A stretch of 64,000 nucleotides of DNA from a virus, in the IMG/VR virus record IMGVR_UViG_3300045988_105524. One strand, 5' to 3'. The translations under genes and the position numbers were made by a program. Positions 756-32,094 of the stretch are shown here, one piece after another. Position 1 is the first letter of the stretch; each line of letters begins with the position of its first letter. A model generated the notes under the pieces. That model had not been told where the DNA came from and did no database searches. It saw only the letters and a list, made by a program, of their open reading frames with translations.

Positions 756-780
756 CTCTTTTTATTTAGTTGTACTTCTT
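756..780. repeat. A-repeat (CTCTTTTTATTTAGTTGTACTTCTT) copy 1
   Basis: Exact 25-27 nt sequence recurring 7 times in window. Confidence 0.9.
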
Positions 781-844
781 AATCAGATTTAATCTCTGAC
801 CATAAGTTTTAAATTTAACGGTAAAATATATTACGTAAACATAA

Positions 845-895
845 AAAGCTCTCAGAAGTCAATCTCGTACGTCTGAGATATATCTGAGAGCTATG
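845..895. repeat. B-repeat (palindromic AGCTCTCAGA...TCTGAGAGCT element, T-run after) copy
   Basis: 10-bp outer inverted repeat with conserved internal sequence; family recurs ~10x. Confidence 0.8.
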
Positions 896-917
896 TTTAT
901 CGTAAATTCTTATGTAC

Positions 918-943
918 ACTCTTTTTATTTAGTTGTACTTCTT
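918..943. repeat. A-repeat copy 2
   Basis: Exact match to the 25-nt core. Confidence 0.9.
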
Positions 944-960
944 TACAAAAAAAAAGACGC

Positions 961-1000
961 TCTCTTAAGCTGAGCGCCTTCTTAACTGCGATATGTAAAT
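961..1000 (-). terminator. intrinsic terminator (GGCGCTCAGCTTAAGAGAGCGTC hairpin + T9 on minus strand)
   Basis: GC-rich hairpin followed by T-run read on minus strand. Confidence 0.6.
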
Positions 1001-1161
1001 CTTTAATCAAAATATTTTAGTAAAAGGAACATATTTTTGCAGCGTATAAATTCTACGATACGTAAATCTTGATTCAAAACTTATAGAGAAAAGGAACGTA
1101 TTTTTGTAGAATATAGTTGTATTGTAACACAAAACATCGCGTTTGTAAACAACTTTTAAAA

Positions 1162-1296
1162 TTAAAATTCAGCGTAAGTAAAATCTGACGTCCTTAACAT
1201 AAAGCCAAAAATACCAAATGCATATAATAGTGCAAAACTAACAAGTAGTCTAACACTCAGCGGTACTTTAGACATAAACTCTGTAATCTTTTTCAC
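1162..1296 (-). CDS. small hydrophobic peptide (~45 aa, GTG start)
   Basis: AAGGAG RBS 6 nt upstream of GTG; single predicted TM helix; not in ORF track (<60 aa). Confidence 0.25.
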   Translation of the reverse strand: MKKITEFMSKVPLSVRLLVSFALLYAFGIFGFMLRTSDFTYAEF

Positions 1297-1374
1297 CAAG
1301 TTCTCCTTTAACTTCTGAGAATAATTTTCGTCTTAAGCGGTAATTATTATTAAAAGAGCATAAAAGTTTACGAG

Positions 1375-1420
1375 AGACGATTCTGGTTCGTCTGGAGTAT
1401 ATCTCAGAGCACTTCTGTAA
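1375..1420. repeat. B-repeat copy (GATTCTGG/CCAGAATC variant)
   Basis: Sequence identity to other B copies. Confidence 0.8.
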
Positions 1421-1460
1421 TACTACTCACTGGAATAACATTATACGGATTCTTCTCACA

Positions 1461-1486
1461 CTCTTTTTATTTAGTTGTACTTCTTT
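1461..1486. repeat. A-repeat copy 3
   Basis: Exact match. Confidence 0.9.
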
Positions 1487-1724
1487 AGTCAAAATACACT
1501 TCAATAGGCGTATCAGTTGTAAATGATAAAACTAACTCACCATTTATAATAATTGCAGGCGCGCCAAACATCTGTTCATTAGGCACTTCAAATTTAGTGC
1601 CTGCTTTAATGTAGACAATATCGCCTTTAAGAAATAAACCATTCTCTTCTAGTACTTTTTCTGTGATGCTCTCATCTAAATCATTGATGCTGCAATACAC
1701 CACATCTCTTGCAAATCTAAGCAT
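1485..1724 (-). CDS. hypothetical protein (79 aa)
   Basis: ORF track; AAAGAGAGG RBS; preceded by A-repeat 4 and a B-repeat. Confidence 0.45.
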   Translation of the reverse strand: MLRFARDVVYCSINDLDESITEKVLEENGLFLKGDIVYIKAGTKFEVPNEQMFGAPAIIINGELVLSFTTDTPIEVYFD

Positions 1725-1811
1725 TATATTACCTCTCTTTAATCTTCTGCGTCAGATGCTACTTCTGACAATAAATTTTTAATTAGTGATAGTTTTTACG
1801 ATAAATATATG

Positions 1812-1866
1812 AAAAGCTCTCAGAAGTCAATCTCGTTCGTCTGGAGTATATCTCAGAGCTATATTT
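1812..1866. repeat. B-repeat copy
   Basis: Sequence identity to 845..895 copy. Confidence 0.8.
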
Positions 1867-1877
1867 AGCATCCTTTT

Positions 1878-1903
1878 CTCTTTTTATTTAGTTGTACTTC
1901 TTT
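1878..1903. repeat. A-repeat copy 4
   Basis: Exact match. Confidence 0.9.
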
Positions 1904-1989
1904 TTATATCTCTATTAGTTGAATAAGCCTCTACACCACGTCAAGGTTGAGATAATTAGTAGAGGTAGAGAGCGCAAAGCTCTCTTATT

Positions 1990-2973
1990 TTAAGCCCAAT
2001 CTTTCTTATACTCCTCTGTGTATATATAAGGCCAAGTACGCTTAGAGTATTCAAGCAATTCTGTAAGTCTATTCTCACACTCTTTCTGAATCTTTCTTAA
2101 AATACTACTGTCGTCTGAGCCTGCAAGTTCATCTTTGCTCTTCTGTAGATAATCGTCTGGTGTAGTCCAGTCGAGCACTTCCTTGTTTTCTTCATTAGGC
2201 TGGAATAGAGCGCTACCAAAGTTAGTCTTTGTTTCGTGAATGTAAAAATTACTCTTATTCTTGATATTGAATTTATCAGCCATAAAAGGATAAATCTCAC
2301 AAAGAGCTACATAAGTTCTTAGAGCAAGAATATACTCTTCATTAGGCTGTACTTGTAAGTCAAGTCTCTGGCCTAGGAATCTCATTAGCTCATTAAAATT
2401 CATTGTAGGGTATACAAAATGAAGAACTGTCTTTGGTGTGACTAACCTACAATCCTGATTAGAGATTTCGTGCGTATTCATCATATCACAATAGAGATTC
2501 ATTGCGTCGTCTACTAGCTTTAGGTATCTGTCTTTAAAACCAAGCTTTTCATAACTCTCAGGCATAGCAATATCGCATACATTCTGAGGATTGTCACCTG
2601 TGCACATAGCGCTTGCACTCCACTTATGGCGATACAAGTGAGTAGTTTCCTGATGGTGTATTCCATCAATACAGAGTACGAAGTTAATCATATCTCTAAA
2701 GCCAGGTAAGAAACCGTTATTATGCATAGCTCTATACAGAATCTTCATTTTATCTTCATCTGTTAGATTATAAACATCATATCTTCTATTTTCTACATCT
2801 CCTGTTCTTGACCAAGTTGCAAGCAGCGGTCCTACGCACATTTCAGCAAGTTGCTCTACAGTAGGGTAAGACTTAAATTCTACAGAGATAGGCTCAAGGT
2901 CGTTAGTAATTCTATACTCAGGTACTAGCTTATCCCATTTCTTAACTCTTTTATCTCTTACGTTAAATTCCAT
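1990..2973 (-). CDS. ThyX-like flavin-dependent thymidylate synthase family protein (tentative)
   Basis: 327 aa; ..YRHKWSAS.. resembles the ThyX RHR-x7-S signature; size fits the family. Confidence 0.4.
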   Translation of the reverse strand: MEFNVRDKRVKKWDKLVPEYRITNDLEPISVEFKSYPTVEQLAEMCVGPLLATWSRTGDVENRRYDVYNLTDEDKMKILYRAMHNNGFLPGFRDMINFVLCIDGIHHQETTHLYRHKWSASAMCTGDNPQNVCDIAMPESYEKLGFKDRYLKLVDDAMNLYCDMMNTHEISNQDCRLVTPKTVLHFVYPTMNFNELMRFLGQRLDLQVQPNEEYILALRTYVALCEIYPFMADKFNIKNKSNFYIHETKTNFGSALFQPNEENKEVLDWTTPDDYLQKSKDELAGSDDSSILRKIQKECENRLTELLEYSKRTWPYIYTEEYKKDWA

Positions 2974-2989
2974 TTAAACTTCCTTTCTT

Positions 2990-3157
2990 CTAATTTAAAT
3001 ATGCTTTGCATTGCATAACAATATTTTCTAGCGGTAAATGCTTATAGCAAATCATTTCTCTACTTAGAGAATCTTGCACTACAAAAATATTATCTTTTTC
3101 TATTATTATTGTATCATCTGGCAGTATGCCTATTAGCTCAATTAATTTTTCTAGCAT
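2990..3157 (-). CDS. small hypothetical protein (55 aa)
   Basis: AAGGAAG RBS; immediately downstream of A-repeat copy 5; not in ORF track. Confidence 0.25.
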   Translation of the reverse strand: MLEKLIELIGILPDDTIIIEKDNIFVVQDSLSREMICYKHLPLENIVMQCKAYLN

Positions 3158-3173
3158 TGTTTATGCGCTTCCT

Positions 3174-3199
3174 TTCTTTTTATTTAGTTGTACTTCTTT
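3174..3199. repeat. A-repeat copy 5 (one mismatch)
   Basis: TTCTTTTTATTTAGTTGTACTTCTTT. Confidence 0.85.
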
Positions 3200-3798
3200 C
3201 ACATCAATTTTGTAATCTCGCTTACCTGCGTATGCAGGCTTTCTGCTAAATCATCGATTAAGATTAAGAAGTTAAACCCTAATGAACTAACTAACAGAAT
3301 GTTAGAATCTTCAGTAGATTGCCAACATCTACGACATTCTTCTAACTGAGAATTTTCATTGATAAATTTTACTAGCTTAACGCTACATTGCGTAAAAATG
3401 TCAGAGTATTTAAAATTACTACTATACGACATCTTTTTACGCCAGCCAATAACGTTAAACCCATTTACAGAATCTTTACCAAACTCCATGTCTGTTTTGA
3501 GTAATAAATCTTTGTATTCACTGTTTAACAAATCAATCTTAGCAGTGTAAAAATTAATCAACTCATCTAGTGGATAACCTCTTTTGTCTTTGTCTATGTA
3601 AATTTTATTTAATGTTGCATCATATCTATTTGATGGTATATTTCCACAGAATATTTCTTCATTCCCATTAAATTCAAAAGCTGCGTACATATAGCAATCT
3701 TCGTTAATAAAGCTTCTATCGTCAGCAATTTGTACTCCGCCAATTGCATTTAGAAATGTGTTAAGTTGTTTAGTAAATTTGTCATTATCGTAAATCAT
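3199..3798 (-). CDS. hypothetical protein (~200 aa)
   Basis: Track ORF 3199..3897 trimmed to internal Met to avoid overlap with 3815..4219. Confidence 0.4.
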   Translation of the reverse strand: MIYDNDKFTKQLNTFLNAIGGVQIADDRSFINEDCYMYAAFEFNGNEEIFCGNIPSNRYDATLNKIYIDKDKRGYPLDELINFYTAKIDLLNSEYKDLLLKTDMEFGKDSVNGFNVIGWRKKMSYSSNFKYSDIFTQCSVKLVKFINENSQLEECRRCWQSTEDSNILLVSSLGFNFLILIDDLAESLHTQVSEITKLM

Positions 3799-3814
3799 AT
3801 TATTTATCTCTCTC

Positions 3815-4219
3815 TTATTTTGCACAAAAATCTTTAAGCACGTATGAAGCCTGTAGAGGCTCACTGAATTTTTCGTGTGAATCAAAGCGTCTTTCAATAT
3901 GCTTTACTATCTTTTCGTGCATTTCATCAATATTTAAGTTTAAGTTAATTATTCTGCAACTAACTAAGTTAAAATGTATTACAGACTTATAATCAAGTCC
4001 TACTTTAGCGCTTATTTTTATGTCTAATATACCTGAAAGCTGCTTTTCTCTACCGTTATCGTCTCTATAAGTACCCTTGTAATGATAACCGCTACATCTA
4101 AATATGCCATTTAACAAATTGTCTTGCACGTCATTTACAGCGATTAATCTAAAATCATTTTCTGGTATATGATTATAGTCACAATATAGCTTAACATCAT
4201 ATTCTCTATATACTTTCAT
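3815..4219 (-). CDS. small acidic protein, tandem paralog family
   Basis: LLNGIFRCSG motif shared with family. Confidence 0.5.
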   Translation of the reverse strand: MKVYREYDVKLYCDYNHIPENDFRLIAVNDVQDNLLNGIFRCSGYHYKGTYRDDNGREKQLSGILDIKISAKVGLDYKSVIHFNLVSCRIINLNLNIDEMHEKIVKHIERRFDSHEKFSEPLQASYVLKDFCAK

Positions 4220-4234
4220 AATTTCTCTTTCTCT

Positions 4235-4600: not shown

Positions 4601-4914
4601 TCATTGCTCTCCTTTGTTTTAATTTCAACTTTAAACTCTAGATGTTGATAAGTGTCTGAGTTATATCTATCTTCAATACTTTCAAAAAGCTCTTCATCGC
4701 TTGCTTCTAAAAAATGATAGTGTATTAATCTTTTATCTTTTAGATTTAGCACTGCAAACATTTTTACAGTTACTAAGCTATTAGATATTTTAACGCTGTC
4801 ACATACAAAAGTGGCATATATCACATCATTTCTGACGTAATCGACATTGTCAAGATAGTACTTCTCGTCAGGCGCTTCTGTCTGATACAAATAAATATTT
4901 TTCTTCACATACAT
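4591..4914 (-). CDS. small acidic protein, tandem paralog family
   Basis: ATFVCDS motif; same size and charge pattern. Confidence 0.45.
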   Translation of the reverse strand: MYVKKNIYLYQTEAPDEKYYLDNVDYVRNDVIYATFVCDSVKISNSLVTVKMFAVLNLKDKRLIHYHFLEASDEELFESIEDRYNSDTYQHLEFKVEIKTKESNECL

Positions 4915-5303: not shown

Positions 5304-5367
5304 TTATTCGACCTCTCTACTTAGAATCTAACAACTCTTAAAGGAGTTTTATATTTCTGCGCTAACT

Positions 5368-5688: not shown

Positions 5689-5708
5689 AATATTCTACTC
5701 CTTAACTA

Positions 5709-6110: not shown

Positions 6111-6140
6111 TGTTTATCTTTCTCCATTTTTATTTATATA

Positions 6141-6260
6141 CGTTTCTCAGATGTATCTCAGACGAACCAGAATCGTCTCTCGTAAACTTTAGCATACTTG
6201 TCGTATAAACTATTATAAAATATAAAAGTCTCTTAGAAATGATTCTGGTATCTCTGGTTA
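6141..6260. repeat. B-repeat copy plus partial inverted copy
   Basis: CTCAGATGTATCTCAGACGAACCAGAATCGTCTCTCGTAAAC and GATTCTGGTATCTCTGG. Confidence 0.7.
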
Positions 6261-7093: not shown

Positions 7094-7732
7094 CTACCCT
7101 ACCAAATTACAATAGTATTTAACTTTTGCAAATACATCGCGGTGTTCGTATAAATCTACTGAGCATCGAACTCCTGGAAGAGCTCTACAACGAAAACTTA
7201 ACTTTTTATTTAAGTAGTCATACATAATACTATTCATATTTTCAGTGTCTTTAAATTCTATATAGTCTATGTTTGAACCTAAGTAGCGTATCTTGTAAAC
7301 CAAATCAGTAGGTACAGATACGCGGTCATACAGTTCGTATAAAGCACGCTCTCTTTTAATAAGCATTACATCTTCTTTAGTGATGAATCTTAAAAAATGA
7401 TTAGCTCGATTAAATAGCTTTCTACTACCTAAATCAGAATTAAACTGCTTAAGCAGATTACGTGTATGCTTGAGTCTAAACTCATACTGCGTCTTTTTAC
7501 CAATCTGTCTTGATACTACTCTTACTACATCATCAAAGCCGTATGCGTTTAAAAGACTTTCAAGCTGATACTTGATGTCTACGTCTTTATGATATACGAA
7601 CTTGTTTTCTTTTGCTTTAATCTCGTTCTCTAGTTCTTTTAGCTCATTCTGTAGTTGTTGCTGTCTCTCAATAAGCTCATAGATGTTATCATTATTCATA
7701 TTTATCACCTCTTTATGTAAATATTGTAACAT
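7094..7732 (-). CDS. hypothetical protein with N-terminal coiled coil (212 aa)
   Basis: ORF track; promoter and RBS upstream. Confidence 0.5.
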   Translation of the reverse strand: MLQYLHKEVINMNNDNIYELIERQQQLQNELKELENEIKAKENKFVYHKDVDIKYQLESLLNAYGFDDVVRVVSRQIGKKTQYEFRLKHTRNLLKQFNSDLGSRKLFNRANHFLRFITKEDVMLIKRERALYELYDRVSVPTDLVYKIRYLGSNIDYIEFKDTENMNSIMYDYLNKKLSFRCRALPGVRCSVDLYEHRDVFAKVKYYCNLVG

Positions 7733-7753
7733 AGCTTAAAGTAAATGTAAACA
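7723..7753 (-). promoter_or_regulatory. sigma70-like promoter TTTACA-N17-TACAAT
   Basis: Read on minus strand; preceded by hairpin+T-run terminator at ~7755..7790. Confidence 0.6.
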
Positions 7754-7774
7754 ACAAAAAGCAAGTCTCAGATT

Positions 7775-9742
7775 TTACTCTGAGACAAACTTTCTAATAT
7801 TAACGCCTTGTGTTAGTCGATTTTTAGTTATGCTATACTGACTAGTATTAAACATCTGACCGTTTACTTCAAATATTTCATCGTCGTCTACAAGGCGTAC
7901 ATCAACCGCGTCAGGTCTAATTCCTTTTGACATTAATCTTCTTGAATTATCAAAACCATCAAGAGGAATTCTTGCAACTTTCTTATCGTAAACAATAAAT
8001 AATGTTTTTGACTTAGTTTCTTTAGTTAGAGGAATCTTAGCAATAATCTGCTCACCCATTTCTAATTCCTTGAATTTAACTAAACCACCTTCAAATTCGT
8101 GCGCGATATTAGGTTTAATCTTATGCACAAATATTTTAAAACATCTTCCTTTATTAGTGAATAGAAGAATACTATCTCTATTGTCAACAACAAGCTTTTC
8201 ATAGTGGTCTGGCGTTTTAGCTCTACTCTCACCATTTACTCTTCTAATATCCTTGCCAATGAATAGAGTAGATGTACCATCTATCTTAACTTCTTTCTTT
8301 TCTTTCGCTAAAGGCTTAACTTCTTCCCATTCAGTCAAAATCTCTGTTTTTCTTGGGATGCTGTATGTATCTCTAACTCTGTTTAAGTCATCAATCATTA
8401 CGTCAATAGACTTTGTTTTCTTAAGCTTTTTGATAGATTTTTCAAGCTCTGTAATTTCTTTTGTACGATTAAGCACATACTCTTCATTAAAGTTTCTTAG
8501 CTTAATATTAGCGACATACTCAGCTTGAATATCATCAATAGAGAATTCATTCATTAAGCCAGAGATTACTTCATCATCACTCTTACTACTTTTAACAATC
8601 TCTACAGCTTTATCAATATTCAGTAGAATCTGAGCTAAGCCTTTAAGTAAATGTAGCTTATCTTCTTTTTCAGCAATTTCAAAATTTATTTCATCTTGTA
8701 CCCAAGCTTTTCTATGCTCTATCCACTTATCTATAATTTCATACACACCCATTTTAGCAGGTCTGTTGTTATAAACTAGCGTCATATTACAAGAGAATGT
8801 ACTCTGAAGAGGAGTTAGTAAATAAAGCTTATTTATAAGAGCTTTTACGTCTGCACTTCTCTTATGCTCAATAGACACTCTGAAGCCATCAATACCAATT
8901 TCGTCTTTTACGTCAAGAATCTCAGGAAACTGTCCTTTATCATAACATTTTTGAATAGAGTCAATTATACTCTCAGCAGTTGTATTATAAGGAATTTCGT
9001 CTACATTAATAACGTTATTCTCTTTATCGATACTAAGCTTTGCTCTAAGAGTTACTTTACCTGAACCATTCTCAAATATATCTGCAACGTCTTCATCTTT
9101 ATATAGAACATAAGCTCCAGTAGAAAAATCTGGTACAGGCATAATTTCACGAATATTCTTATTTCCATTCAGCACTGCTATACAAGCATCGCATAACTCA
9201 GCTAGATTAAAAGAAGGAAAATCGCAAGCAAAACCAATACCAATACCTGACTGAGGGTTTGCAAGTATATTAGGAAAAGGCATAGAGAGTAAAACAGGTT
9301 CTTTCATCGTACCGTCGTAATTGTCAACCATATTTTCTGGGTGCATATACAGCTTGTCCATCATTTCGTGACAAATTGGTGCAAGTGACATTTCAGTATA
9401 TCTTTCAGCAGCAGGTTCCATTGAAGAAGAGTAAACCTTACCAAAAGAACCTTTACCATTTATAAAAGGTGTTAGTAGTGTTTCATTCTCTCTTGTCATT
9501 CTTACAAGTGAACCATAAAGCGTACTATGAGGGTGTATCTTCATTACCTGACCTGTAATATTAGCGCTTTTTGCTAGCTTATTAAAAAGGTTCATAGTTT
9601 TCATAGTATACAACCCTTTTCTCTGAGATGGCTTAAAACCATCTTCAAGAATAGGCAATGCTCTGTTAGTAATTACTTCTAAGCTCATTATCATCATATT
9701 ATCTCTGATGCTTGAACCTACTTCAGTATTTGTAATTTGCAT
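7775..9742 (-). CDS. type II DNA topoisomerase, GyrA/ParC-like breakage-reunion subunit
   Basis: 655 aa; GyrA N-terminal domain-like sequence; adjacent to GyrB-like gene. Confidence 0.7.
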   Translation of the reverse strand: MQITNTEVGSSIRDNMMIMSLEVITNRALPILEDGFKPSQRKGLYTMKTMNLFNKLAKSANITGQVMKIHPHSTLYGSLVRMTRENETLLTPFINGKGSFGKVYSSSMEPAAERYTEMSLAPICHEMMDKLYMHPENMVDNYDGTMKEPVLLSMPFPNILANPQSGIGIGFACDFPSFNLAELCDACIAVLNGNKNIREIMPVPDFSTGAYVLYKDEDVADIFENGSGKVTLRAKLSIDKENNVINVDEIPYNTTAESIIDSIQKCYDKGQFPEILDVKDEIGIDGFRVSIEHKRSADVKALINKLYLLTPLQSTFSCNMTLVYNNRPAKMGVYEIIDKWIEHRKAWVQDEINFEIAEKEDKLHLLKGLAQILLNIDKAVEIVKSSKSDDEVISGLMNEFSIDDIQAEYVANIKLRNFNEEYVLNRTKEITELEKSIKKLKKTKSIDVMIDDLNRVRDTYSIPRKTEILTEWEEVKPLAKEKKEVKIDGTSTLFIGKDIRRVNGESRAKTPDHYEKLVVDNRDSILLFTNKGRCFKIFVHKIKPNIAHEFEGGLVKFKELEMGEQIIAKIPLTKETKSKTLFIVYDKKVARIPLDGFDNSRRLMSKGIRPDAVDVRLVDDDEIFEVNGQMFNTSQYSITKNRLTQGVNIRKFVSE

Positions 9743-12945: not shown

Positions 12946-13011
12946 AGTCTCTCTTTTAATCTCTCTACGTTATTTCTAGCTTATGTATATAAACTATCAT
13001 TAAGAGCATAA

Positions 13012-13068
13012 AAAGCTCTCAGAAATGATTCTCGTACGTCTGAGATATATCTGAGAGCTATATTTTAC
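13012..13068. repeat. B-repeat copy
   Basis: AAAGCTCTCAGAAATGATTCTCGTACGTCTGAGATATATCTGAGAGCTAT. Confidence 0.8.
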
Positions 13069-13844
13069 TTAACGTTCAATTTAGCGTACAACTCTTCTTC
13101 AGTTATAATCTTTATGCCTAATTGCACTGCTTTCTTATACTTACTACTTGAGCTAGGTTCATTACAAACAAGAAAATCAGCTTTGTTTATAGCAACTTCT
13201 TCAGCATTATGCTCTTCTAAAAATTTAACTATATCTTTTCTTGCTTTGCTCATTTTGCCTGTTAGACAAACTTTTATACCTGCACTCTTTTTATTTAGTT
13301 GTACTTCTTTGACGTAGTTAAGCGCATCATCTAACTCAGAATAATCAAAGTTTAGTAGTGTATTAGAAATACCTGAACTGATACCAGGTATCTGAGAAAA
13401 ATCAAATCTTTCATCGATAGCTTTTCTAAAAGAAGAGTAGTTATTAAAATAATCAACTAGCTTTATCGCTGTTTGCTTAGAGATATTTTCTAAACCGCAA
13501 TTAGCAATTAATTTCCATAGCTCTATTTCTTTAGGGATGTTATTTAGAATCTTATCTACTGAAATATCAGAAAAACCGTCAAGCTGCAACCACTCTTCTC
13601 TATGAGCGTAGAGTTTAAAATAATCTGATAAGCAAGTTAACCAACCTAACTTAATCAACTTCTCAATAGTGGAGTTAGAGATGCCTTCAATATCAAGCGC
13701 TTGTTTACCTGCAAATCTTATTAGCTTATTCTTTATCTTAGCAGGACAGTGTTTATTTTCGCATACAAGCTGCTTTACTCCTGTTACGTCAATCTTTAAT
13801 TCAGAACCGCAGTCAGGGCATATTGTTGGAATTTCAATTCTCAT
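13065..13844 (-). CDS. ligA: NAD-dependent DNA ligase, C-terminal half (Zn-finger, HhH, BRCT)
   Basis: Starts with a Cys4 Zn-finger (ICPDCGSEL...CENKHC), HhH segment, C-terminal BRCT-like ..VCLTGKM..; own RBS GAGGTGA. Confidence 0.75.
   Translation of the reverse strand: MRIEIPTICPDCGSELKIDVTGVKQLVCENKHCPAKIKNKLIRFAGKQALDIEGISNSTIEKLIKLGWLTCLSDYFKLYAHREEWLQLDGFSDISVDKILNNIPKEIELWKLIANCGLENISKQTAIKLVDYFNNYSSFRKAIDERFDFSQIPGISSGISNTLLNFDYSELDDALNYVKEVQLNKKSAGIKVCLTGKMSKARKDIVKFLEEHNAEEVAINKADFLVCNEPSSSSKYKKAVQLGIKIITEEELYAKLNVK
13285..13310. repeat. A-repeat copy 6, inside the ligA C-half coding sequence
   Basis: Exact 26-nt match; encodes KEVQLNKKS in frame. Confidence 0.9.
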
Positions 13845-13853: not shown

Positions 13854-14576
13854 TCAAATTTCTACAGAATTATCATAATATTTCCAATGCAAATTATTTG
13901 TTTTCTTACGCTTACCTGAACAGCATTCGCTTATTTTTGAATTGCGACTATTAGTTTCTTTTGAGGCTTGCGTTATAGAGTCGTATACTATTCCAGTCTC
14001 TACGCATACAACTTTACGCCGTTTTTTGGCGGCTGCAGCTTCAATTCTTTTTTTATGGATAATCTTCATTTCTTCTGGGTGTTCTTTTTGCCATTTTAAG
14101 CAGTCTTTAACTTTTTCTCTCGACCATTCTATATCATTTTTCATTTTAATCACCATAGCTTTGTTAGCATTCGGAGAAATGATTTTTATTCCACATATTC
14201 GTTTATTATACTCAGGTTTTAGACTCCTGATATAATTTTCTTCTATATTTTTAGCTTCGCTAATAGTACAAGTAGCTCTAGATAATTCTGTATGCGTAAA
14301 ACACCCGTTTCCATATTTCTCAATGTCTTGATTAAACTCTTTATTAAACTTATACCCCTTGCCATTTCCCCATCTAGCTTTAATAGATTTTTGTGTTGTA
14401 GCTCCAACATATCGTTTATTGTTTACTGTGCAAGTGTGCATATAAAATATAACATTATATTTATTAGTGTCTTCATCAGATTTTAATATAGGTTTTTCAT
14501 TGTGCATGTCCTTTAAATGCCGATTTAACGAAGAGCGACAAGAAAAACACTTATTGCATATTAAACATCTTTCCAT
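13854..14576 (-). CDS. GIY-YIG homing endonuclease inserted within the DNA ligase gene
   Basis: N-terminal C2H2-like finger, ..YVGATTQ..R..GNG.. GIY-YIG-like core, basic C-terminus; ATG overlaps the ligase N-half stop (TAATG). Confidence 0.6.
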   Translation of the reverse strand: MERCLICNKCFSCRSSLNRHLKDMHNEKPILKSDEDTNKYNVIFYMHTCTVNNKRYVGATTQKSIKARWGNGKGYKFNKEFNQDIEKYGNGCFTHTELSRATCTISEAKNIEENYIRSLKPEYNKRICGIKIISPNANKAMVIKMKNDIEWSREKVKDCLKWQKEHPEEMKIIHKKRIEAAAAKKRRKVVCVETGIVYDSITQASKETNSRNSKISECCSGKRKKTNNLHWKYYDNSVEI

Positions 14577-15607
14577 TAGTTATTCCTTTCTGCTTTTACT
14601 ACTTGCGGTATTATACAATTTGATTTTCTTATCCAAATCTTTTGCCCAACGTACGGTTCGCCAAGAATTTTTTCTACTATATCAAGATTATGCATACTAG
14701 CTCTCTGAACATTTGTACCATCAATAACAACAGGCTTAAACTTCGCTACAGGAGTAAGATTACCTGTCTTACCTTGTGTCCATATAATGTCTAGCAACTC
14801 TGTTTCATATAGCTCATCATAAAATTTAAAAGCTAAAGCAGCGTTAGGACTATGCTCTGTTTTACCTAAGCTTTCATATTCTTCTATATTGTTAATCTTG
14901 TAAACTAGACCGTCAATAGGTAAATCAACACATTGTTCTCTTAGTGCCTCTGTATCAAAATCAAATCTATAAGGCACTACTTCAAAATCTCTACCTAAAT
15001 CATAAAGCTTTTCTGATAGTAGAGAATAAGACTTATCTGAAGAGATTAAATCAAAAGCAATAAATGATAAATTTCTCTGCTCTGCAACTTTAAGTCTCAT
15101 ACTACCCGCAGCATAATTTCTTACATTGGAAGAACCTACGTAATCAGAATATTTACAGATAACTTCACCTTCGACTGTAATATCATAAGGTAGAGACTTA
15201 GGAATATTGTCAATCATCATAGCGTTATGCGTAACATCTTCACCTATTCTGCCATTTCCTCTAGTCTCTGCTCTGAATAGCTTACCATTTTTATAAGTTA
15301 ATCTACAAGTTAAACCATCAAGCTTAGCCATAGCGATAATATCTTTATTCTTAAAAAATTTCTTTACTTCTTCAATATCTTTTGTTTTATTTAAAGATAG
15401 CATAGGAGTAGAATGCTCTACTTTATTCAATGTATTAGAGTGAATATTCTGAGTAGGAGAATCTTTATCAGGAGTATGCGTCTTTTCATATTCTACTACT
15501 TGAAAATATAAATCATCCCATTCTTTATCTGAAAGTGCAGGTGCTCCAGAATCATATAACTCTGTGTGCTTATTTAATTCTTTTATTGCTTCTTTATAAT
15601 TGAACAT
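14576..15607 (-). CDS. ligA: NAD-dependent DNA ligase, N-terminal half (Ia, adenylation KxDG, OB fold)
   Basis: ..AMAKLDGLT.. KxDG motif, ..ALAFKF.. motif V, complete OB-fold-like C-terminus; ends exactly at the OB/Zn boundary. Confidence 0.8.
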   Translation of the reverse strand: MFNYKEAIKELNKHTELYDSGAPALSDKEWDDLYFQVVEYEKTHTPDKDSPTQNIHSNTLNKVEHSTPMLSLNKTKDIEEVKKFFKNKDIIAMAKLDGLTCRLTYKNGKLFRAETRGNGRIGEDVTHNAMMIDNIPKSLPYDITVEGEVICKYSDYVGSSNVRNYAAGSMRLKVAEQRNLSFIAFDLISSDKSYSLLSEKLYDLGRDFEVVPYRFDFDTEALREQCVDLPIDGLVYKINNIEEYESLGKTEHSPNAALAFKFYDELYETELLDIIWTQGKTGNLTPVAKFKPVVIDGTNVQRASMHNLDIVEKILGEPYVGQKIWIRKSNCIIPQVVKAERNN

Positions 15608-16188: not shown

Positions 16189-16212
16189 ATCAAATCTCCT
16201 TATAATAGAGAT

Positions 16213-16243
16213 ATTTTAACACATCATACAAAATATGTAAACA
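16213..16243 (-). promoter_or_regulatory. sigma70-like promoter TTTACA-N17-TAAAAT
   Basis: Minus-strand read; follows the T9 run that ends the ncRNA. Confidence 0.55.
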
Positions 16244-16261
16244 TAAAAAAAAATGCTACAC

Positions 16262-16565: not shown

Positions 16566-18755
16566 TTAAATGCAAACATAATATGTATTTACTTTTATGC
16601 CATTAAGCTTAGCAAATTCTAGAATTGTTTTCATCTCTTCAGAGTCAGATTTTAATCTTCTGTTATACATACCCGATGCTTGTAGAATCTCGTTGTCTCT
16701 AACTTCAATAGTAATCAAAGGTGTATCTAAATCGTCATTAGCTCTTAAGAAGAAAATAAATGTTTCTTTTCTAAGTACTCTGTTAATATATGATGATACA
16801 CAGTGTTTCAAAGCTTCACCTTCTTGAACAATGGCTATAAGAGTAGGAGGTGCAATAATACTAAAGTTCTCGCCTACATAACTTTTGTATGTATATGTTT
16901 TTAGTACTTTTGCATACTCTTCTTCTGCTAATTCTTGTTTAATTGCGTTGTATGTTTCTGCTAGTGTATCGTGGAATGCTTTGATACTATTTTCTTCAAT
17001 ACTATGCTTGATGTCATTTGTAAAATCTTTTATCTTTCTATCTTTGTATACAGAGAAATACATATTTAGCATATCACATAAATACCAGTCTTTAACATCA
17101 TTTTCGTATACGCTGTAGTAAACATCTCTTGTATCATTATTACGGAAAAGAATAAGATTGAACAATTCAATGTATCTCTTTAATTCACTTTCAACTGACT
17201 TGAATGTTGTGTTAAAGCTGAGCAATTCAATTATTCTATTATCAACAATTTTAATTTGCTTTATAAACTCGTCTAGAGCTTTCTCGCGATTTTCAATGTA
17301 GTCTAACTGCGCGTTAATATCTCCAAAAGCACGCGTTAGTAAGAAATAAAATTCCAAAAATAACTCACCGACAATCTTAAGCTCTTCTGTAGAAAATCTC
17401 GAAATAATATTGAAAACGCCTGTGCCTGTGTCGCACATATGCATTAGACGAATTCCTGTTACTGCTTTAAGAGAGTCTATTTCAAAAAGCATATTTACTC
17501 TTGGCACTGTATCAAAGAATGATGATTTTAACTCTCTAACAAGTGAATTATTTTTGTATATGTCGAATATCTTTATTAGATAATTTGCTCTATCTACATC
17601 AGACCAATCATTGAGTCGCTTTAGAGCTGGAATCTTACCGTAAACTGAGAATAAACCCTCAAGCTTATCACTGTACAGCAAATCTATTAAATCATTAACA
17701 ATAATCTGTCTAGGTCTACGAATATTATAATCATAGTAACTTGTATTTCTCTGATAAAACGACTTAAAATCATTGAGATTACGCAGCAAGTACTCAAAAT
17801 TCTTTATTCTATTAGAGAAACCGCTGCAGTCAGGAATATCTTCAAAGTGAGTAGGTATACAAGCTTGCATACTCTTCATACCAGCTTTTGTAGTTTTAAC
17901 GCCATTTACGAAAAACTTAAAATAACCAGTTTTAGGAATAATTATCTTTATACGGTTTTCTCTCTTTGTATCTACAAGATGTAGTGTAGCCTCTTCAGAC
18001 TTTTCATTATAAGTAACAGTATTATACTCATACTCTACTGAGTTATCAATTTGTATATTAGCATACTTATATATAAAGCTGAAAATATTCTTTTCACGAT
18101 TTGAGTCAGAGATACTGTTAAATAATTCAATCTGCTCTTTACTCATATCCAGCAGCTTATACATTTCATCATTATTAATGAATTTATCATACGTTTGCGT
18201 ACTTAACTGTACTGCAGGCTTGACTACATCAATAAAAGGTCTCTCTATAAGCATAGAATTCTTTGCGTCTAAATCAGTAATTATGATAGCATCAAATTCT
18301 TCTTCGCCTTTAGTATGATATGCTGTAAGATTATTTGAAACGTAGCAATTAGGCAAAATAGTATAAACATAATTATCTATTTTTACAGAATAATACTGCA
18401 CTTTCTCAACAGCGTCACTGATTAAATAAAACTTATCATTAAATCTTACACGAATACTGTCATAATATTCACGATGAATATATAAATCGTACATTAAAGC
18501 AACTTTATCTTCTTTTAAAAGATTATCTTTAATGTAAGACTTAGCAACCTCTTGTATTGCGTCACTTAAGAAACTTACTGGATAAGTTAACTTAGTCGTG
18601 TATTCTTCATTTGTAGAGTGATTTATAATTTTAACTAATTCTCTATTTTTAACATACTGAGGTTCGAATACGTCTACTTTTTCGTATAGCTTATTCAAAA
18701 GCTCTTCAGCATTCTGAGACTTTAGCCAAGTTTTAGTGCCTATCTGTACTTTCAT
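16566..18755 (-). CDS. large hypothetical protein (729 aa), possibly with PcfJ-like C-terminal domain
   Basis: ORF track; C-terminal ..LKHCVSSY..FIFFLR.. reminiscent of PcfJ-like proteins (weak). Confidence 0.4.
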   Translation of the reverse strand: MKVQIGTKTWLKSQNAEELLNKLYEKVDVFEPQYVKNRELVKIINHSTNEEYTTKLTYPVSFLSDAIQEVAKSYIKDNLLKEDKVALMYDLYIHREYYDSIRVRFNDKFYLISDAVEKVQYYSVKIDNYVYTILPNCYVSNNLTAYHTKGEEEFDAIIITDLDAKNSMLIERPFIDVVKPAVQLSTQTYDKFINNDEMYKLLDMSKEQIELFNSISDSNREKNIFSFIYKYANIQIDNSVEYEYNTVTYNEKSEEATLHLVDTKRENRIKIIIPKTGYFKFFVNGVKTTKAGMKSMQACIPTHFEDIPDCSGFSNRIKNFEYLLRNLNDFKSFYQRNTSYYDYNIRRPRQIIVNDLIDLLYSDKLEGLFSVYGKIPALKRLNDWSDVDRANYLIKIFDIYKNNSLVRELKSSFFDTVPRVNMLFEIDSLKAVTGIRLMHMCDTGTGVFNIISRFSTEELKIVGELFLEFYFLLTRAFGDINAQLDYIENREKALDEFIKQIKIVDNRIIELLSFNTTFKSVESELKRYIELFNLILFRNNDTRDVYYSVYENDVKDWYLCDMLNMYFSVYKDRKIKDFTNDIKHSIEENSIKAFHDTLAETYNAIKQELAEEEYAKVLKTYTYKSYVGENFSIIAPPTLIAIVQEGEALKHCVSSYINRVLRKETFIFFLRANDDLDTPLITIEVRDNEILQASGMYNRRLKSDSEEMKTILEFAKLNGIKVNTYYVCI

Positions 18756-22020: not shown

Positions 22021-22140
22021 AGCCAGATTTAACTTCTGACTGCTGTTTTTATCATAGGTGATAGTTTATATTAAATTAGCATAAAAGTTTACGAGAGACG
22101 ATTCTGGAGTTTCTGAGATATATCTGAGAGCTATATTTCG
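22021..22140. repeat. composite C+B intergenic repeat (inverted orientation relative to 32281..32395)
   Basis: Reverse complement of GATAAAAACAGCAGTCAGAAGTTAAATCT (C) and of the B consensus. Confidence 0.8.
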
Positions 22141-22925: not shown

Positions 22926-22953
22926 AACGTAAACCTCTCTTTCGATATTTTCT

Positions 22954-22984
22954 ATTATATCAAAAGATATTTAGTATGTAAACA
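22954..22984 (-). promoter_or_regulatory. sigma70-like promoter TTTACA-N17-TATAAT
   Basis: Perfect consensus on minus strand, directly after hairpin+T10 terminator (22985..23012). Confidence 0.65.
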
Positions 22985-23012
22985 AAAAAAAAATACAGCT
23001 TAATGCTGTATT

Positions 23013-27218: not shown

Positions 27219-27253
27219 ATAATTACCTCTTTAATTATGAACTAAGGTATTAA

Positions 27254-27451: not shown

Positions 27452-27469
27452 AATTTTTACTCCTTGTTA

Positions 27470-27808: not shown

Positions 27809-27891
27809 AATAATTTCCTCTCTTTATATATTTATTATAACAAATATATAAAGAGATGTAAACAAAAAAAAAATGTACCTCGTGCGGTACA

Positions 27892-28518: not shown

Positions 28519-28885
28519 CGATTATCTCCACTTCAACTCTTGGGTTTTCTTTGTCAGTTTCTACTGTATCTGAAAAACTCTTTACAAACTTGCGGCTGTC
28601 ATCTTCTAAGATGCCTGCAGTAACAAGCGCGTCTTGAATAAATTTCTTAGCAAAAGACACGTTATCAGCATCGCGTCTATTGTTAGGCTCATACCACTTA
28701 TAATTGATATGTACGGGATAGTTGTCTATTCTCGCTAGCGTACCCTCTTCAACAGCCTTATGTATACACTCTAGTATCTGCTGCTCTGTATTCTTTTTCA
28801 TACTACCACCAACAAAACGATTATGTCTGTTAGCACGTGTGTATTCATTGAGATTAGGTAATCTACCGTCGATTGTGAAATGCAT
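28511..28885 (-). CDS. rusA: RusA-family Holliday junction resolvase
   Basis: ..LPNLNEYTRANRHNR.. and ..RRDADN..F.DAL..AGIL.DD.. align with RusA conserved blocks. Confidence 0.7.
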   Translation of the reverse strand: MHFTIDGRLPNLNEYTRANRHNRFVGGSMKKNTEQQILECIHKAVEEGTLARIDNYPVHINYKWYEPNNRRDADNVSFAKKFIQDALVTAGILEDDSRKFVKSFSDTVETDKENPRVEVEIIVE

Positions 28886-28887
28886 AA

Positions 28888-29418
28888 TTATCCCTCACAT
28901 AGCTTTCTCAATAACTCTTCTGCACGCTCTGATGCTTCTCTTTCAATCTGATTCCACTCATCGTCGTTTTTATTATGACGTATTTCTCTACGAGTATAGA
29001 GTAGTGCATCAAGCGCATCAGCTAGTTTTACGAGAGTCATTGCATCTTCAACTTTTTCGCAATTCTCCATAGCTCTATAAAAAGCAGGTACTGTCTGCAT
29101 AGCGTCTCGTTCTAATTTCTTTACAAGAGTCTTTAGCTCAGGGTTCTTTTCTTTAATCATGTAATTAACATCACCTAAGCTAGTTTCTACGCTTTCTACA
29201 TAGTCGTGTACACAAGCATACTTCAATGCTGCAAAAGTAATTTCATCGGGAATGCAAAGTAAATCAGCAAGATAAACTACAATCTGACTTACAAACAACT
29301 GATGCTCTGCATCATTCTGAGTAAACATAAAATCTCTCAACTGCCAGCGGTTTACTCTACTCTGACGGTATAGCTTTAAATCTTCAAGCTTATGTATTAG
29401 TTCTGTAAAGTTATTCAC
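28888..29418 (-). CDS. cca: HD-domain phosphohydrolase segment of CCA-adding enzyme (C-terminal part)
   Basis: ..AEHQL..H..HD.. HD motif; ATGA-overlap coupling with upstream ORF. Confidence 0.55.
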   Translation of the reverse strand: MNNFTELIHKLEDLKLYRQSRVNRWQLRDFMFTQNDAEHQLFVSQIVVYLADLLCIPDEITFAALKYACVHDYVESVETSLGDVNYMIKEKNPELKTLVKKLERDAMQTVPAFYRAMENCEKVEDAMTLVKLADALDALLYTRREIRHNKNDDEWNQIEREASERAEELLRKLCEG

Positions 29419-29726
29419 TTTCTTTCTCCTTTTAATAGCTCTTTATATTCTTTTTCAAGCAGCATGCCAACTTCTGCTGATGGCTTATCAATACTATACT
29501 TTTTCATAATATCTGAGCCTGTAGGCGCTTTTATTTTACTAAATTTATCTGTAAAATCTACGCCTCTAAGAATTGCGTACTGCTTTGTAACTTTTTTGTC
29601 TTTTAGAAACGCTTTGAAAAGCTGCACTTCATCGGTAATTCTTGACAGCTCAATCAACTTTCTCTGCTTAGTAGACTTAATCATCTCAGGAATCACTTCA
29701 GCGTCTTTGTACAAAAATGCGTACAT
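29415..29726 (-). CDS. cca: middle (neck/body) segment of CCA-adding enzyme
   Basis: Lies between the nucleotidyltransferase head and HD ORFs; different frame from the head ORF (14-nt gap). Confidence 0.4.
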   Translation of the reverse strand: MYAFLYKDAEVIPEMIKSTKQRKLIELSRITDEVQLFKAFLKDKKVTKQYAILRGVDFTDKFSKIKAPTGSDIMKKYSIDKPSAEVGMLLEKEYKELLKGERK

Positions 29727-29740
29727 TAAGTCAATGTCTT

Positions 29741-30235
29741 TTACTGGAAAACTCTCAATGAATCTTCGATGAATGTTTTATCATCAATATGCTTAATAAT
29801 CTTTTTCTTAATATCTGATACGCCACCAAAAGAATCAATAATCTCATCAGTAAAGATATTCTTGTAAATAGCATTTACAGTAAAGTCTCTTCTTCTCTGA
29901 GCATCTATAATAGGAAGATAAGGTACAAGCTCACAATCGAAATCAGTATGCTTATCACCAGTCTTAGTTTCTACTCTAGGAATAGATATATCAAGCTCAC
30001 CAAGCTTGTAGATGCCGTACTGCTTGCCAATAAGCTCTACTTCTTTAAAACCAAGCTTTTCAGCGCAGATATTCAGAATATTCTCAAGAGTTTCTTGCTC
30101 GACATCAAATACTTCAATGTCGATATCTTTACAAGCTCTGTTTAAGAATTCGTCTCTTACGCAACCGCCTACGAAATATGCTCTATCAGTATAAGGTTGT
30201 AGTTCTTTCTTAAAAATCTCTAATTCTGTGAACAT
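29741..30235 (-). CDS. cca: tRNA nucleotidyltransferase (CCA-adding) head domain
   Basis: ..GGCVRD...DIDI.. class II nucleotidyltransferase signature, ..RRDFTVNA.. Confidence 0.7.
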   Translation of the reverse strand: MFTELEIFKKELQPYTDRAYFVGGCVRDEFLNRACKDIDIEVFDVEQETLENILNICAEKLGFKEVELIGKQYGIYKLGELDISIPRVETKTGDKHTDFDCELVPYLPIIDAQRRRDFTVNAIYKNIFTDEIIDSFGGVSDIKKKIIKHIDDKTFIEDSLRVFQ

Positions 30236-30237
30236 CT

Positions 30238-30699
30238 TTACTTCTTTCTGTAATCTACAAGTCTCATTCCATCTGTACGCTTGTTTTCAATATGCGGTCT
30301 ATCTTTTAGTAGTTCACGAGTATCGCAGCCGTGCGCTGTTACAATATGATAGCCATTTGGAGTTTTGTATACTTCAATCTCTACAGGCTTAAAAATCTTG
30401 TATAAGTCTTTAAAGAATTCTACAAGCAGACTTTCATCAGTAGAGTCAAAATCGAACAACCACTTTTTAGTTAGTAGCTTACTTGTCATACTAAGAGAAA
30501 TAAGTGTGTTGTTGATGTTCTTCAGTTTTACGTTTTCGTCTGTTAGTAGCTTAACTACTAGAGCTTTCTTTAAAACTTCTTCATCGATAGTGTTGAATGC
30601 TGCATAAAATCTACAAGTCTCACCTTCGACACCTTGCTGTACGAATTCTTCAAATTCTTCTTTTAGTTTTTCAATATCGTCGAACTCTTCATCTGTCAC
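30238..30699 (-). CDS. acidic hypothetical protein (153 aa)
   Basis: ORF track; promoter 30814..30844. Confidence 0.45.
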   Translation of the reverse strand: MTDEEFDDIEKLKEEFEEFVQQGVEGETCRFYAAFNTIDEEVLKKALVVKLLTDENVKLKNINNTLISLSMTSKLLTKKWLFDFDSTDESLLVEFFKDLYKIFKPVEIEVYKTPNGYHIVTAHGCDTRELLKDRPHIENKRTDGMRLVDYRKK

Positions 30700-30813
30700 T
30701 AGCTTAAACTTTTTCTAATCTTGAAGTTCTCTACGTCTTTGTTGTCTTTAGCTCTTGACTGAAAAGATATTTGTCTTAGTGCTGTCATAAGTATACCTCC
30801 ATAATATAAATTC

Positions 30814-30844
30814 ATTATATCATTAGAGTATATAAATGTAAACA
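30814..30844 (-). promoter_or_regulatory. sigma70-like promoter TTTACA-N17-TATAAT
   Basis: Perfect consensus; preceded by TGCACTGCAGTA...TACTGCAGTGCA hairpin + T9. Confidence 0.65.
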
Positions 30845-30887
30845 AAAAAAAAATGCACTGCAGTAAAAATACTACAGTGCACTATAA

Positions 30888-32033
30888 TCACTCATTGTCT
30901 TTAACGTTGTTATTCTCTACGCTATTCTCTTCAGCACGCAATTCATCAAGTACATCTTTATCAAGCAATTCAAGATTTACTTCTTTGTTACCTGCAAGAG
31001 CGTTGTTTATCTTTTTTACGTACTCTTGTGTAAACTCAGGATGAGTATTAAAGAATTCTACAAGCGCAGGCTTACCTCTGAAACTACATTCAGTACCGTC
31101 AACAGTAAGAATCTCTCCTGTTTCTAAATCAACAATCTGGTATGTTACATTAGTCGGTCTATTAATATAACCAGCTTTAATAGCAATATCAATAGCGTCA
31201 GAAGAGGTGTCAATGCCTGTATCATATTTATATGTAATATAACCACCGCCTCTTGAAATATTACTTACTTTATTTTTAAAGATATTGAATACAATCTTAA
31301 AACCGATAGCATCTTCACCGTTAGTTGTCTCAGCGCCACTCTTATTAATAAACTTTCTTGTACCACATCTTATACTCAAAGAAGGATAAAAGCCCATTGC
31401 TGTACCACCAGGTTCACTGAACGAAAGAGCGCCATTAGGAAGAGGTGTAGTTCTTGTCTGATTAATAAGTACAAGAATGTTTTTCTTATAATACACTAAA
31501 TCTTGTACCTGTCTACAGAAGTTATGTAAAGACTTAGCGATATTACCTGCCTGACCTAAATCTTTTTCTATATCAGCATTAAGCTGTCTTGTTGACGCTA
31601 GCGCTGCTACACTATCAATAACAATCATTCCGATGTCTTCAGCTTCTTGCATTTCAAGAACCATATCAAAGATAGCCTCTGCGCCCATTCTTGTAGGACT
31701 TACGTAGATAAGCTTTTCTCTATCAACGTGAGTCATAGCGCACTGAAAATCAATATCAATCGCGTGCTCTACGTCTATGTATACACACATCGAATCTGGG
31801 TTCTCGCGCTGATAAGCTGCGATAGCAGTAAAAGTAAAAGTTGTCTTACCTGCGTGAGGTCTACCTGAGATTTGAATTATACGTCCCTTTGGAAAACCTC
31901 CACCAAGAGAGTAATCTGCAGCTAATGCGCCTGTAGGCATAAAATTAACCTTAGGTATTACGTCGCCTCTGATGCATATCTCTTCGTCATACATCTTGTT
32001 TAGCTTTTTTGCAATAGATAAAATACTTGCCAT
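30888..32033 (-). CDS. RecA/UvsX-like recombinase
   Basis: Walker A ..GRPHAGKTTF.., Walker B ..MIVIDSVAAL.., RecA-fold length (381 aa). Confidence 0.7.
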   Translation of the reverse strand: MASILSIAKKLNKMYDEEICIRGDVIPKVNFMPTGALAADYSLGGGFPKGRIIQISGRPHAGKTTFTFTAIAAYQRENPDSMCVYIDVEHAIDIDFQCAMTHVDREKLIYVSPTRMGAEAIFDMVLEMQEAEDIGMIVIDSVAALASTRQLNADIEKDLGQAGNIAKSLHNFCRQVQDLVYYKKNILVLINQTRTTPLPNGALSFSEPGGTAMGFYPSLSIRCGTRKFINKSGAETTNGEDAIGFKIVFNIFKNKVSNISRGGGYITYKYDTGIDTSSDAIDIAIKAGYINRPTNVTYQIVDLETGEILTVDGTECSFRGKPALVEFFNTHPEFTQEYVKKINNALAGNKEVNLELLDKDVLDELRAEENSVENNNVKDNE

Positions 32034-32068
32034 TAAAAATTCCTTTCTGTTAATGAGAACTCTTGCGC

Positions 32069-32094
32069 TCTCTTTTTATTTAGTTGTACTTCTT
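32069..32094. repeat. A-repeat copy 7 (about 45 nt upstream of the recombinase start)
   Basis: Exact match. Confidence 0.9.

Follow-up and report, generated by a model that had tools for sequence, protein, structure and literature searches.

A 26-nucleotide motif at gene starts in a large uncultured phage: a candidate promoter for a phage-encoded multisubunit RNA polymerase

The repeat and its setting

The window analysed here is a 64,000-nucleotide (nt) stretch of DNA from the virus record IMGVR_UViG_3300045988_105524, and our subject is the 26-nt motif AAAGAAGTACAACTAAATAAAAAGAG, which it carries in seven copies on its minus strand (plus-strand form CTCTTTTTATTTAGTTGTACTTCTTT). Over 11.4 kb the window is 100% identical to the ENA contig ERZ27263048 k119_111650 (191,708 bp), of which it forms the first 64 kb, and its source is an uncultured phage of ~190 kb represented by this metagenomic contig. 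The GC content is 33%, there are 26-27 tRNA genes, and the proteins encoded include topoisomerase II subunits, a split ligA product, RecA, Rnl2, RtcB, a CCA-adding enzyme, ThyX-like and TelA proteins and fragments of TnpB. Samples that contain the phage come from studies such as those behind ERZ27263048, ERZ27248734 and SRR15508330. Every gene of the window is on the minus strand, and all motif copies therefore have the sense orientation. None of the known phages is close: comparison of the window with 50,697 phage records by megablast gave no match. A search of 185,579 GTDB species genomes with a 22-mer of the motif gave none either, which indicates that the motif is not host sequence or prophage in those genomes. 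The topoisomerase subunit gene 7775-9742, the only gene searched by tblastn, had a best identity of ~38%, an Rfam scan of the window returned tRNAs and nothing else, and a search of the literature gave no paper on the motif string. Comparisons were made with the record IMGVR_UViG_3300045988_112802 (173,658 bp, ~93% identical to the window; hereafter the IMG/VR relative) and with several metagenomic contigs. The phages of this group are widespread, uncultured and large, and their hosts are apparently Gram-positive anaerobes.

A preliminary description of this DNA had listed seven copies of a 27-nt sequence. The count stands, since seven copies are found in a single orientation (coding, minus strand) where 100 dinucleotide-preserving shuffles gave an expectation of 0; the sequence as it had been written is 26 nt long, and of its coordinates five were right and two were off by one, the copies in question starting at 919 and 32070. 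Five copies are perfect, and two, rather than the single one at 3174 that had been reported, have one terminal mismatch (756, T at motif position 1; 3174, A at position 26). Apart from a half-copy at 524-537, no intermediate copies are present in the window, where the next best match has 8 mismatches. The copies and their immediate neighbours, all on the minus strand, are as follows.

524-537, minus strand: half-copy, TAAGAAGTACAACT joined to GAAGGAGTAAAAATG, that is, motif positions 1-14 followed by the canonical ribosome-binding site GAAGGAG
756-781, minus strand: motif copy with T at position 1, 9 nt 5' of the ATG of the 74-amino-acid (aa) open reading frame (ORF) 522-746
919-944, minus strand: perfect copy; hairpin with U-run 945-978 directly upstream; downstream a hairpin element (~840-899), then copy 756
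945-978, minus strand: intrinsic-terminator-like hairpin (GGCGCTCAGCTTAAGAGAGCGTC followed by T9), ending 2 nt before copy 919
1461-1486, minus strand: perfect copy, its first bases overlapping the TAA stop of ORF 1485-1724; downstream a long palindromic element (1307-1418), then the 45-aa ORF 1162-1299
1878-1903, minus strand: perfect copy, followed by palindromic element 1809-1867 and then ORF 1485-1724
3174-3199, minus strand: motif copy with A at position 26, abutting the TGA stop of ORF 3199-3897, 16 nt upstream of the ATG of the 55-aa ORF 2990-3157
13285-13310, minus strand: perfect copy inside the C-terminal half of ligA (13065-13844), in frame, encoding KEVQLNKKS in the linker before the BRCT domain
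32070-32095, minus strand: perfect copy, 36 nt upstream of the RecA/UvsX-like gene 30888-32033
32210-32238, minus strand: sigmaA/sigma70-like promoter (TTTACA-17-TACAAT, with TG), ~115 nt upstream of the recA copy of the motif

Typically a copy overlaps the stop codon of the gene before it, and its AAGAG end runs into the ribosome-binding site (RBS) of the next. Among the 63-64 distinct instances in the window and related DNA, about half touch or overlap the stop codon of the preceding ORF, some of these ORFs ending within the motif (...KKYN-stop), and positions +27 to +32 are purine-rich and Shine-Dalgarno (SD)-like. The distance to the start codon is 3-16 nt in 43/63 instances, most commonly 9-14 nt, and the remaining ~20/63 lie 31-198 nt from a start codon or within ORFs, copies of the latter kind being 2 of ~20 per genome. 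For the window, the preliminary description had given 10-70 nt, a range that covers copies 3174 and 32070 (16 and 36 nt) and covers neither copy 756 (9 nt) nor copies 919, 1461 and 1878, where a palindromic element comes next and the start codon is 150-170 nt away; its statement that every copy in the 750-1900 region is followed by such an element is correct for these last three and not for copy 756. A sigma70-like promoter or a terminator immediately before the motif is seen at few copies. At copy 919 the order is terminator-like hairpin with U9, motif and 74-aa gene (ORF 522-746), with no sigmaA-like promoter between hairpin 945-978 and that gene, and at recA the promoter 32210-32238 and the motif copy are a tandem of host-type and motif signals. 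Only frame 1 of the motif is open, and therefore both in-ORF copies read KEVQLNKKS, as had already been noted for the copy in ligA. The motif RNA is predicted to be unstructured.

Conservation of the motif across lineages

In the related DNA the motif keeps the strand bias seen in the window: all instances lie on the coding strand except one, at 4850 in ERZ772979 NODE-3310 (L023), in agreement with the orientation rule of the preliminary description. NODE-3310 is a low-coverage contig in which two distant genome regions are joined via a palindromic element, and its opposite-strand copy is probably the product of an assembly chimera. The fetched parts of the IMG/VR relative contain 20 copies at ≤2 mismatches, on the coding strand throughout.

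Across the 63-64 instances, positions 2-8, 10, 12, 14-16 and 18-25 are invariant, the information content is ~2 bits at 20/26 positions, and the flanks fall to background within one base. Position 17 is the most variable internal position (A, C and T in 54, 8 and 2 instances, respectively), and the ends vary too, position 26 being G, A or T and position 1 A or T. In 14 orthologous groups, 5/364 motif columns are variable (1.4%) against 63/840 flank columns (7.5%; p = 4e-6), a test that is biased because many of the loci were retrieved by an exact match to the motif. Strong purifying selection on the motif is supported, in line with the earlier argument against drift.

Free of that bias are the loci retrieved independently of the motif. 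A Logan contig found through a RecA that is 62% identical starts with AAGTACAACTAAATAAAAAGAG, 14 nt before recA, and a beta'-like RNA polymerase (RNAP) subunit, described below, that is 75% identical led to a contig of the same sample with a perfect 26-mer at its end that overlaps a stop codon, near the position of the motif copy that lies just outside the window and near the RNAP cluster. Both of these contigs, from SRR19906104, break at the motif, one (L011) starting at motif position 5 and the other (L166) ending 1 nt past position 26, a break that a 26-nt repeat should not cause by itself in a k=31 assembly graph. A third lineage (ODLZ01001615 and others, with contigs of 99.7 and 85 kb, FLRT01007966.1 and OWNK01000012.1) has a LigA that is 30% identical and a shared 74-aa gene that is 83% identical at the nucleotide level, and yet motif positions 2-25 are identical on both sides of the 74-aa gene. 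The in-ORF copy of ligA is retained in three genomes of the same lineage (the window and two others), with the next nine bases differing at 5-6 positions. No motif or analogous repeat was found in 12-21 kb samples of more distant relatives with RecA 44-47% identical (L012, L044 and L045), samples that are small and make this absence weak evidence.

The phage-encoded RNA polymerase and the reading of the motif

The genes for an RNAP lie 8-10 kb past the window end, on contig ERZ27263048 k119_111650 (L163 1-1879). They encode a 717-aa beta-like protein, which matches PF00562 (RNA_pol_Rpb2_6) and contains GDKITNLHGAKG, and a 402-aa beta'-like protein, which matches PF00623 (RNA_pol_Rpb1_2) and contains SDCDGD, the counterpart of NADFDGD. 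Both proteins match PHROG 'RNA polymerase beta subunit' families (jumbo-phage RNAP), and a nearby 321-aa protein matches one of these families weakly. Candidate subunits of the enzyme are the 466-, 717-, 402-, 269-, 481- and 321-aa products encoded at ~64-74 kb of contig ERZ27263048 k119_111650. Similarity to the known jumbo-phage RNAPs is confined to the catalytic region, with local matches of the beta-like protein at ≤48% identity over ≤30% of its length. Many large metagenomic contigs, of up to ~530 kb, carry homologues, and the same genes are carried by the motif-bearing lineage with the 75%-identical beta'. Their neighbours are DnaB, primase and DnaC-like genes; a 336-aa homing-endonuclease gene is inserted between the RNAP genes in the lineage of the window and is absent from the 75%-identity lineage. 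The promoters at the RNAP genes are of the host type, TTTACA-N17-TATAAT, located among the genes and, in the 75%-identity lineage, directly upstream of them, and no motif occurs at these genes: going upstream from the single copy at the window border, the next ~18 kb are free of it. Pfam searches of the ORFs of ≥60 aa in the window, part of the remaining genome having been scanned, found no sigma-like or gp55-like protein, no gp33 co-activator and no T7-like single-subunit RNAP domain in the window or in selected ORFs of relatives, with ~60% of the genome covered. No second, virion-type set of RNAP genes was detected by tblastn in the fetched DNA, and PDB sequence searches with two large unknown proteins (898 and 1032 aa), made in case one were a hidden RNAP, gave no match.

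Host-type promoters and the motif are distributed differently. In the window, TTTACA-N17-TATAAT promoters number 25 on the coding strand vs 5 on the other. They are absent or nearly so from the sampled 102-125 kb region, where the motif is present. An unbiased scan of the whole 173.7-kb IMG/VR relative found 12 exact copies of the motif, of which 1 (recA) lies within 4-85 kb (binomial p = 0.006), the half that carries the early genes and those for replication, tRNAs, RNA repair and the RNAP. Upstream of genes it is the only enriched motif that is not of the sigmaA kind. The preliminary description had set the motif apart from the TTTACA-N17-TATAAT promoters as a second class of expression signal, and its coding-strand, intergenic and phage-specific behaviour bears this out. 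Strong sigmaA/sigma70-like promoters with an upstream T-tract, TTTTTTTTTGTTTACA-N17-TATAAT, were observed on the coding strand of the window, for example at the following positions.

7721-7761, 16211-16251, 22952-22992, 27832-27872 and 30812-30852, coding strand: T-tract promoters
36945-36985, 45097-45137, 47384-47424 and 53111-53151, coding strand: further T-tract promoters

On balance, and with modest confidence, we judge from the sequence that the motif probably serves as a T7-style long promoter with a short leader, read by the phage-encoded multisubunit RNAP. A phage that makes its own RNAP needs promoters distinct from those of the host, and the motif is the only other over-represented, strand-specific motif at gene starts. 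Expression would begin with the host sigmaA-type RNAP at the TTTACA-N17-TATAAT promoters, yielding an early set made up of replication, tRNA and RNA-repair genes together with the genes of the phage RNAP itself. The phage RNAP would then bind the asymmetric motif, with the upstream, more G/C-containing AAAGAAGTACAAC (positions 1-13) as the putative determinant and the A/T-rich TAAATAAAAA as the region of melting and start. Transcription may begin in or near the A-run, so that ...AAAAAGAG would become the 5' end of the mRNA and part of the RBS, with the start codon ~10 nt further on. The genes behind the motif would then be of a middle or late class.

Promoters of the single-subunit RNAPs of T7, T3 and SP6 span ~23 bp, from -17 to +6. 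The motif resembles them in being long, contiguous, asymmetric, near-invariant, multi-copy and on the transcribed strand, in overlapping the ends of upstream genes and lying in some cases within ORFs, and in its purine-rich conserved 3' end, where the putative first transcribed bases are followed by an SD sequence. The early genes, including that of the polymerase, likewise lie behind host-type promoters, and the motif is associated with moron-like cassettes. However, the enzyme here is a split, beta/beta'-like multisubunit polymerase, no T7-like RNAP gene having been found in the scanned parts, and the sequence of the motif is unrelated apart from an ACTAAA in common with T3 that may be due to chance. 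Between T7 and T3, whose RNAPs are 82% identical, the promoters differ, whereas the present motif is identical at 75-78% RNAP identity.

The phage resembles jumbo phages with a multisubunit RNAP, such as phiKZ and AR9, in encoding beta/beta' fragments with catalytic motifs and in having a conserved AT-rich motif upstream of operons that can be found by sequence analysis. Known promoters of such enzymes consist of an AT-rich block of ~10 nt (virion RNAPs), of AACA-N6-TA (AR9) or of TATG (phiKZ), and in the late promoters of phiKZ TATG alone is conserved, further specificity determinants being unclear (PMC7598289). The motif, in contrast, has neither AACA-N6-T(A/G) nor TATG and does not match the ~10-nt block; moreover, the RNAP here is weakly similar to the known ones, which serve phages that are independent of the host RNAP, whereas the present phage has many sigmaA-type promoters.

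Several observations weigh against a promoter for the phage RNAP. An invariant promoter of 26 bp is unprecedented for non-canonical multisubunit RNAPs, the known ones being far shorter (PMC7598289). Relatives with a 43-55% identical RNAP (L171-L178, beta' 43-48%) showed no comparable repeated motif in 21-kb samples, which are too small for this to count as more than weak evidence, and the inspection of a related genome covered ~60% of it. At two loci of the IMG/VR relative a TATAAT resembling the -10 box of sigmaA ends 1-5 nt before the motif, which would there be merely a transcribed leader or an operator. Finally, a stable hairpin, in some cases with a U-run, stands straight after several copies and can include the last four bases of the motif, as in the orthologue of copy 919 in relatives and at the copy upstream of a clamp-loader gene; such hairpins are odd for a promoter unless they act as 5' stabilisers or are ignored by the phage RNAP.

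The spacing of the copies can also be read at the level of the mRNA. Acting after transcription as a conserved 5' leader or intercistronic sequence, the motif might be a module for translation initiation (an A-rich enhancer plus SD) or the site at which a sequence-specific RNA-binding protein or nuclease binds or cleaves to control the downstream cistron, an explanation we regard as unlikely while recognising how much it accommodates: the tight distance to the start codon in 43/63 copies, which end 3-16 nt before one, the fusion of the AAGAG end with the SD, the overlap with the upstream stop codon, the half-copy at 524-537, which swaps exactly the 3' half for a canonical SD, and the two loci at which transcription from a sigmaA-like promoter would begin with the first bases of the motif. 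Strand specificity follows equally well from an RNA element. However, ~20/63 copies lie 31-198 nt from a start codon or within ORFs that have no sensible internal start, it would be unusual for an unstructured, linear stretch of 26 nt to be recognised in RNA at each of its positions, the order terminator, motif, gene at copy 919 would go unexplained, and the phage RNAP would be left without any detectable promoter motif.

The same two loci, where the motif sits at the operator position just 3' of a sigmaA-like -10 box, bring to mind the stoperators of Cluster A mycobacteriophages, which number >20 asymmetric sites per genome, keep an orientation tied to transcription and occupy short intergenic spaces (PMC9283540, PMC6550527). 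A DNA-binding regulator of the phage would, as the L5-type immunity repressor does, silence or time transcription by a roadblock at gene junctions or promoters, and the many near-identical asymmetric copies with transcription-locked orientation, intergenic with few in ORFs, fit such a role (PMC9283540), while the relative has a ParA-like partition gene, a hint that a plasmid-like carrier state may exist. We consider this rather improbable. The motif is 26 bp long against the 13 bp of stoperators, has an SD-like end and a fixed spacing to the start codon that a roadblock does not need, and is depleted where sigmaA-like promoters are densest; it is also invariant across distant lineages, whereas real stoperators and their repressor change in step from one subcluster to the next. 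The scanned parts revealed no repressor, integrase or lysogeny module.

A host RNAP redirected by a phage factor, to a promoter of the T4-late type or one for an alternative sigma, was the interpretation of the preliminary description, and it is not supported. T4-type late promoters consist of the 8-bp TATAAATA and depend on gp55, gp33 and gp45. The motif has in common with them an AT-rich element bearing TAAATA near start codons, a clamp-loader gene is present in the relative, and the strand and position rules of the motif are those of any promoter. It reads CTAAATAA, however, within a contiguous block of 26 conserved positions instead of 8, which is neither a -10 box nor a -35/-10 pair, and position 17, within TAAATA, is the most variable internal position. 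With no sigma-like or gp55-like domain in the window ORFs and an RNAP of the phage's own, redirection of the host enzyme appears highly doubtful, and the phage RNAP would be the more natural reader of the motif. Recognition of the motif by the host sigmaA RNAP itself was rejected, there being no -35/-10 geometry and no upstream conservation.

A broader proposal, which we put forward tentatively and regard as possible rather than probable, is that the phage follows a new transcription strategy, a T7-like programme of two stages in which the host sigmaA RNAP is succeeded by a highly divergent multisubunit RNAP acting on an invariant 26-bp promoter with a built-in leader and RBS. On that proposal, the motif would be the first long, sequence-defined promoter of a non-canonical multisubunit RNAP and would imply a specificity subunit that reads at least 20 bp. 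The way in which non-canonical phage RNAPs of this type find their promoters is poorly understood, and the motif together with the RNAP genes would provide a tractable system. The determinants of specificity could then be mapped, an orthogonal transcription module might follow, and classes of gene expression could be annotated in widespread, uncultured large phages.

Gene cassettes, palindromic elements and other features of the genome

Gene presence and absence between relatives is delimited by the motif, in the manner of morons. Close relatives differ in the gene content between the motif copies of the 500-2000 region, and at the locus of copy 3174 the IMG/VR relative and ERZ772979 NODE-3310 carry an extra gene of ~600 nt between two copies of the motif. 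At the site of the half-copy 524-537, a close relative (ERZ772909 NODE-262) and the third lineage have a full motif, and we read the half-copy as a probable recombination junction inside the motif. The unit formed by motif, 74-aa gene and motif has different neighbourhoods in different lineages. With morons and the mobile PeSL cassettes of T4, too, close relatives differ in whether they have small genes flanked by a regulatory repeat; PeSLs, however, carry host-type early promoters plus a stem-loop, whereas the repeat here is a linear 26-mer and the palindromic elements are separate from it and not always attached.

These patterns would also be expected if the motif were primarily a signal for recombination or mobility, marking the boundaries of cassettes in gene shuffling, or a junction at which the phage polymerase stops and starts. 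The indels bounded by motif copies, the junction within the half-copy and the varying neighbourhoods of the unit around the 74-aa gene all speak for it, and yet we give it very little credence, as recombination at any identical 26-bp repeat would leave this pattern as a by-product, the copies have no recombinase associated with them, and those at core genes (recA and the RNAP cluster) are orthologous and stable across lineages. A promoter for the phage RNAP would account for the cassettes as well, since a portable module of promoter and RBS in identical copies would also offer recombination points for small gene cassettes. A homing-endonuclease target, a KOPS-like translocase guide, a Ter site and a centromere were all rejected because they are at odds with the fixed position relative to stop and start codons.

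The palindromic elements of the window are ~60-110 nt long, intergenic and found in both orientations, some of them forming strong hairpins with a U-run.

788-899, 1307-1418, 1809-1867, 6145-6256 and 12947-13066, in the window: palindromic elements
22025-22139, 32280-32390, 38778-38888, 53283-53341 and 60996-61106, in the window: further palindromic elements

These could be terminators or hairpin elements of the IS200/605 type, TnpB genes being present in the genome; a pattern scan with the palindromic element retrieved mostly unrelated phages. Fragments of a TnpB gene (IS605 OrfB, Cas12f-like TNB) lie at 58945-60051, and the arrangement of these pieces differs in relatives. Two 122-nt repeats, 93% identical, are found at 55759-55880 and 58840-58961.

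The NAD-dependent ligA is split into an adenylation/OB half (14576-15607) and a Zn-finger/HhH/BRCT half (13065-13844), with a free-standing homing-endonuclease gene (13854-14576) between them, and a more distant lineage has an unsplit LigA of 626 aa. An intein is present in a GyrB-like topoisomerase gene of a distant relative with RecA 45% identical (L012, 5225-7546), and a Hint-domain protein is encoded in the IMG/VR relative (L007, 1437-2420). The 26-27 tRNA genes form several clusters between 40084 and 54474, among HNH/zinc-finger genes, two of which have a common stretch of 82 nt at 83% identity (39680-39761 and 55206-55287). Some genes are unusual for a phage, among them one for an LPXTG-anchored adhesin with collagen-binding, SpaA and Big_8 domains, together with genes for a VirB11/T2SSE-like ATPase, a weak VirB4-like match and FtsK/SpoIIIE-like, ParA-like and PcfJ-like proteins; the loci concerned are at 149-164 kb (L006) and 164-174 kb (L008) of the IMG/VR relative, in L007, and at 16566-18755 of the window. 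Together these genes raise the question of plasmid- or conjugation-like traits in this phage.

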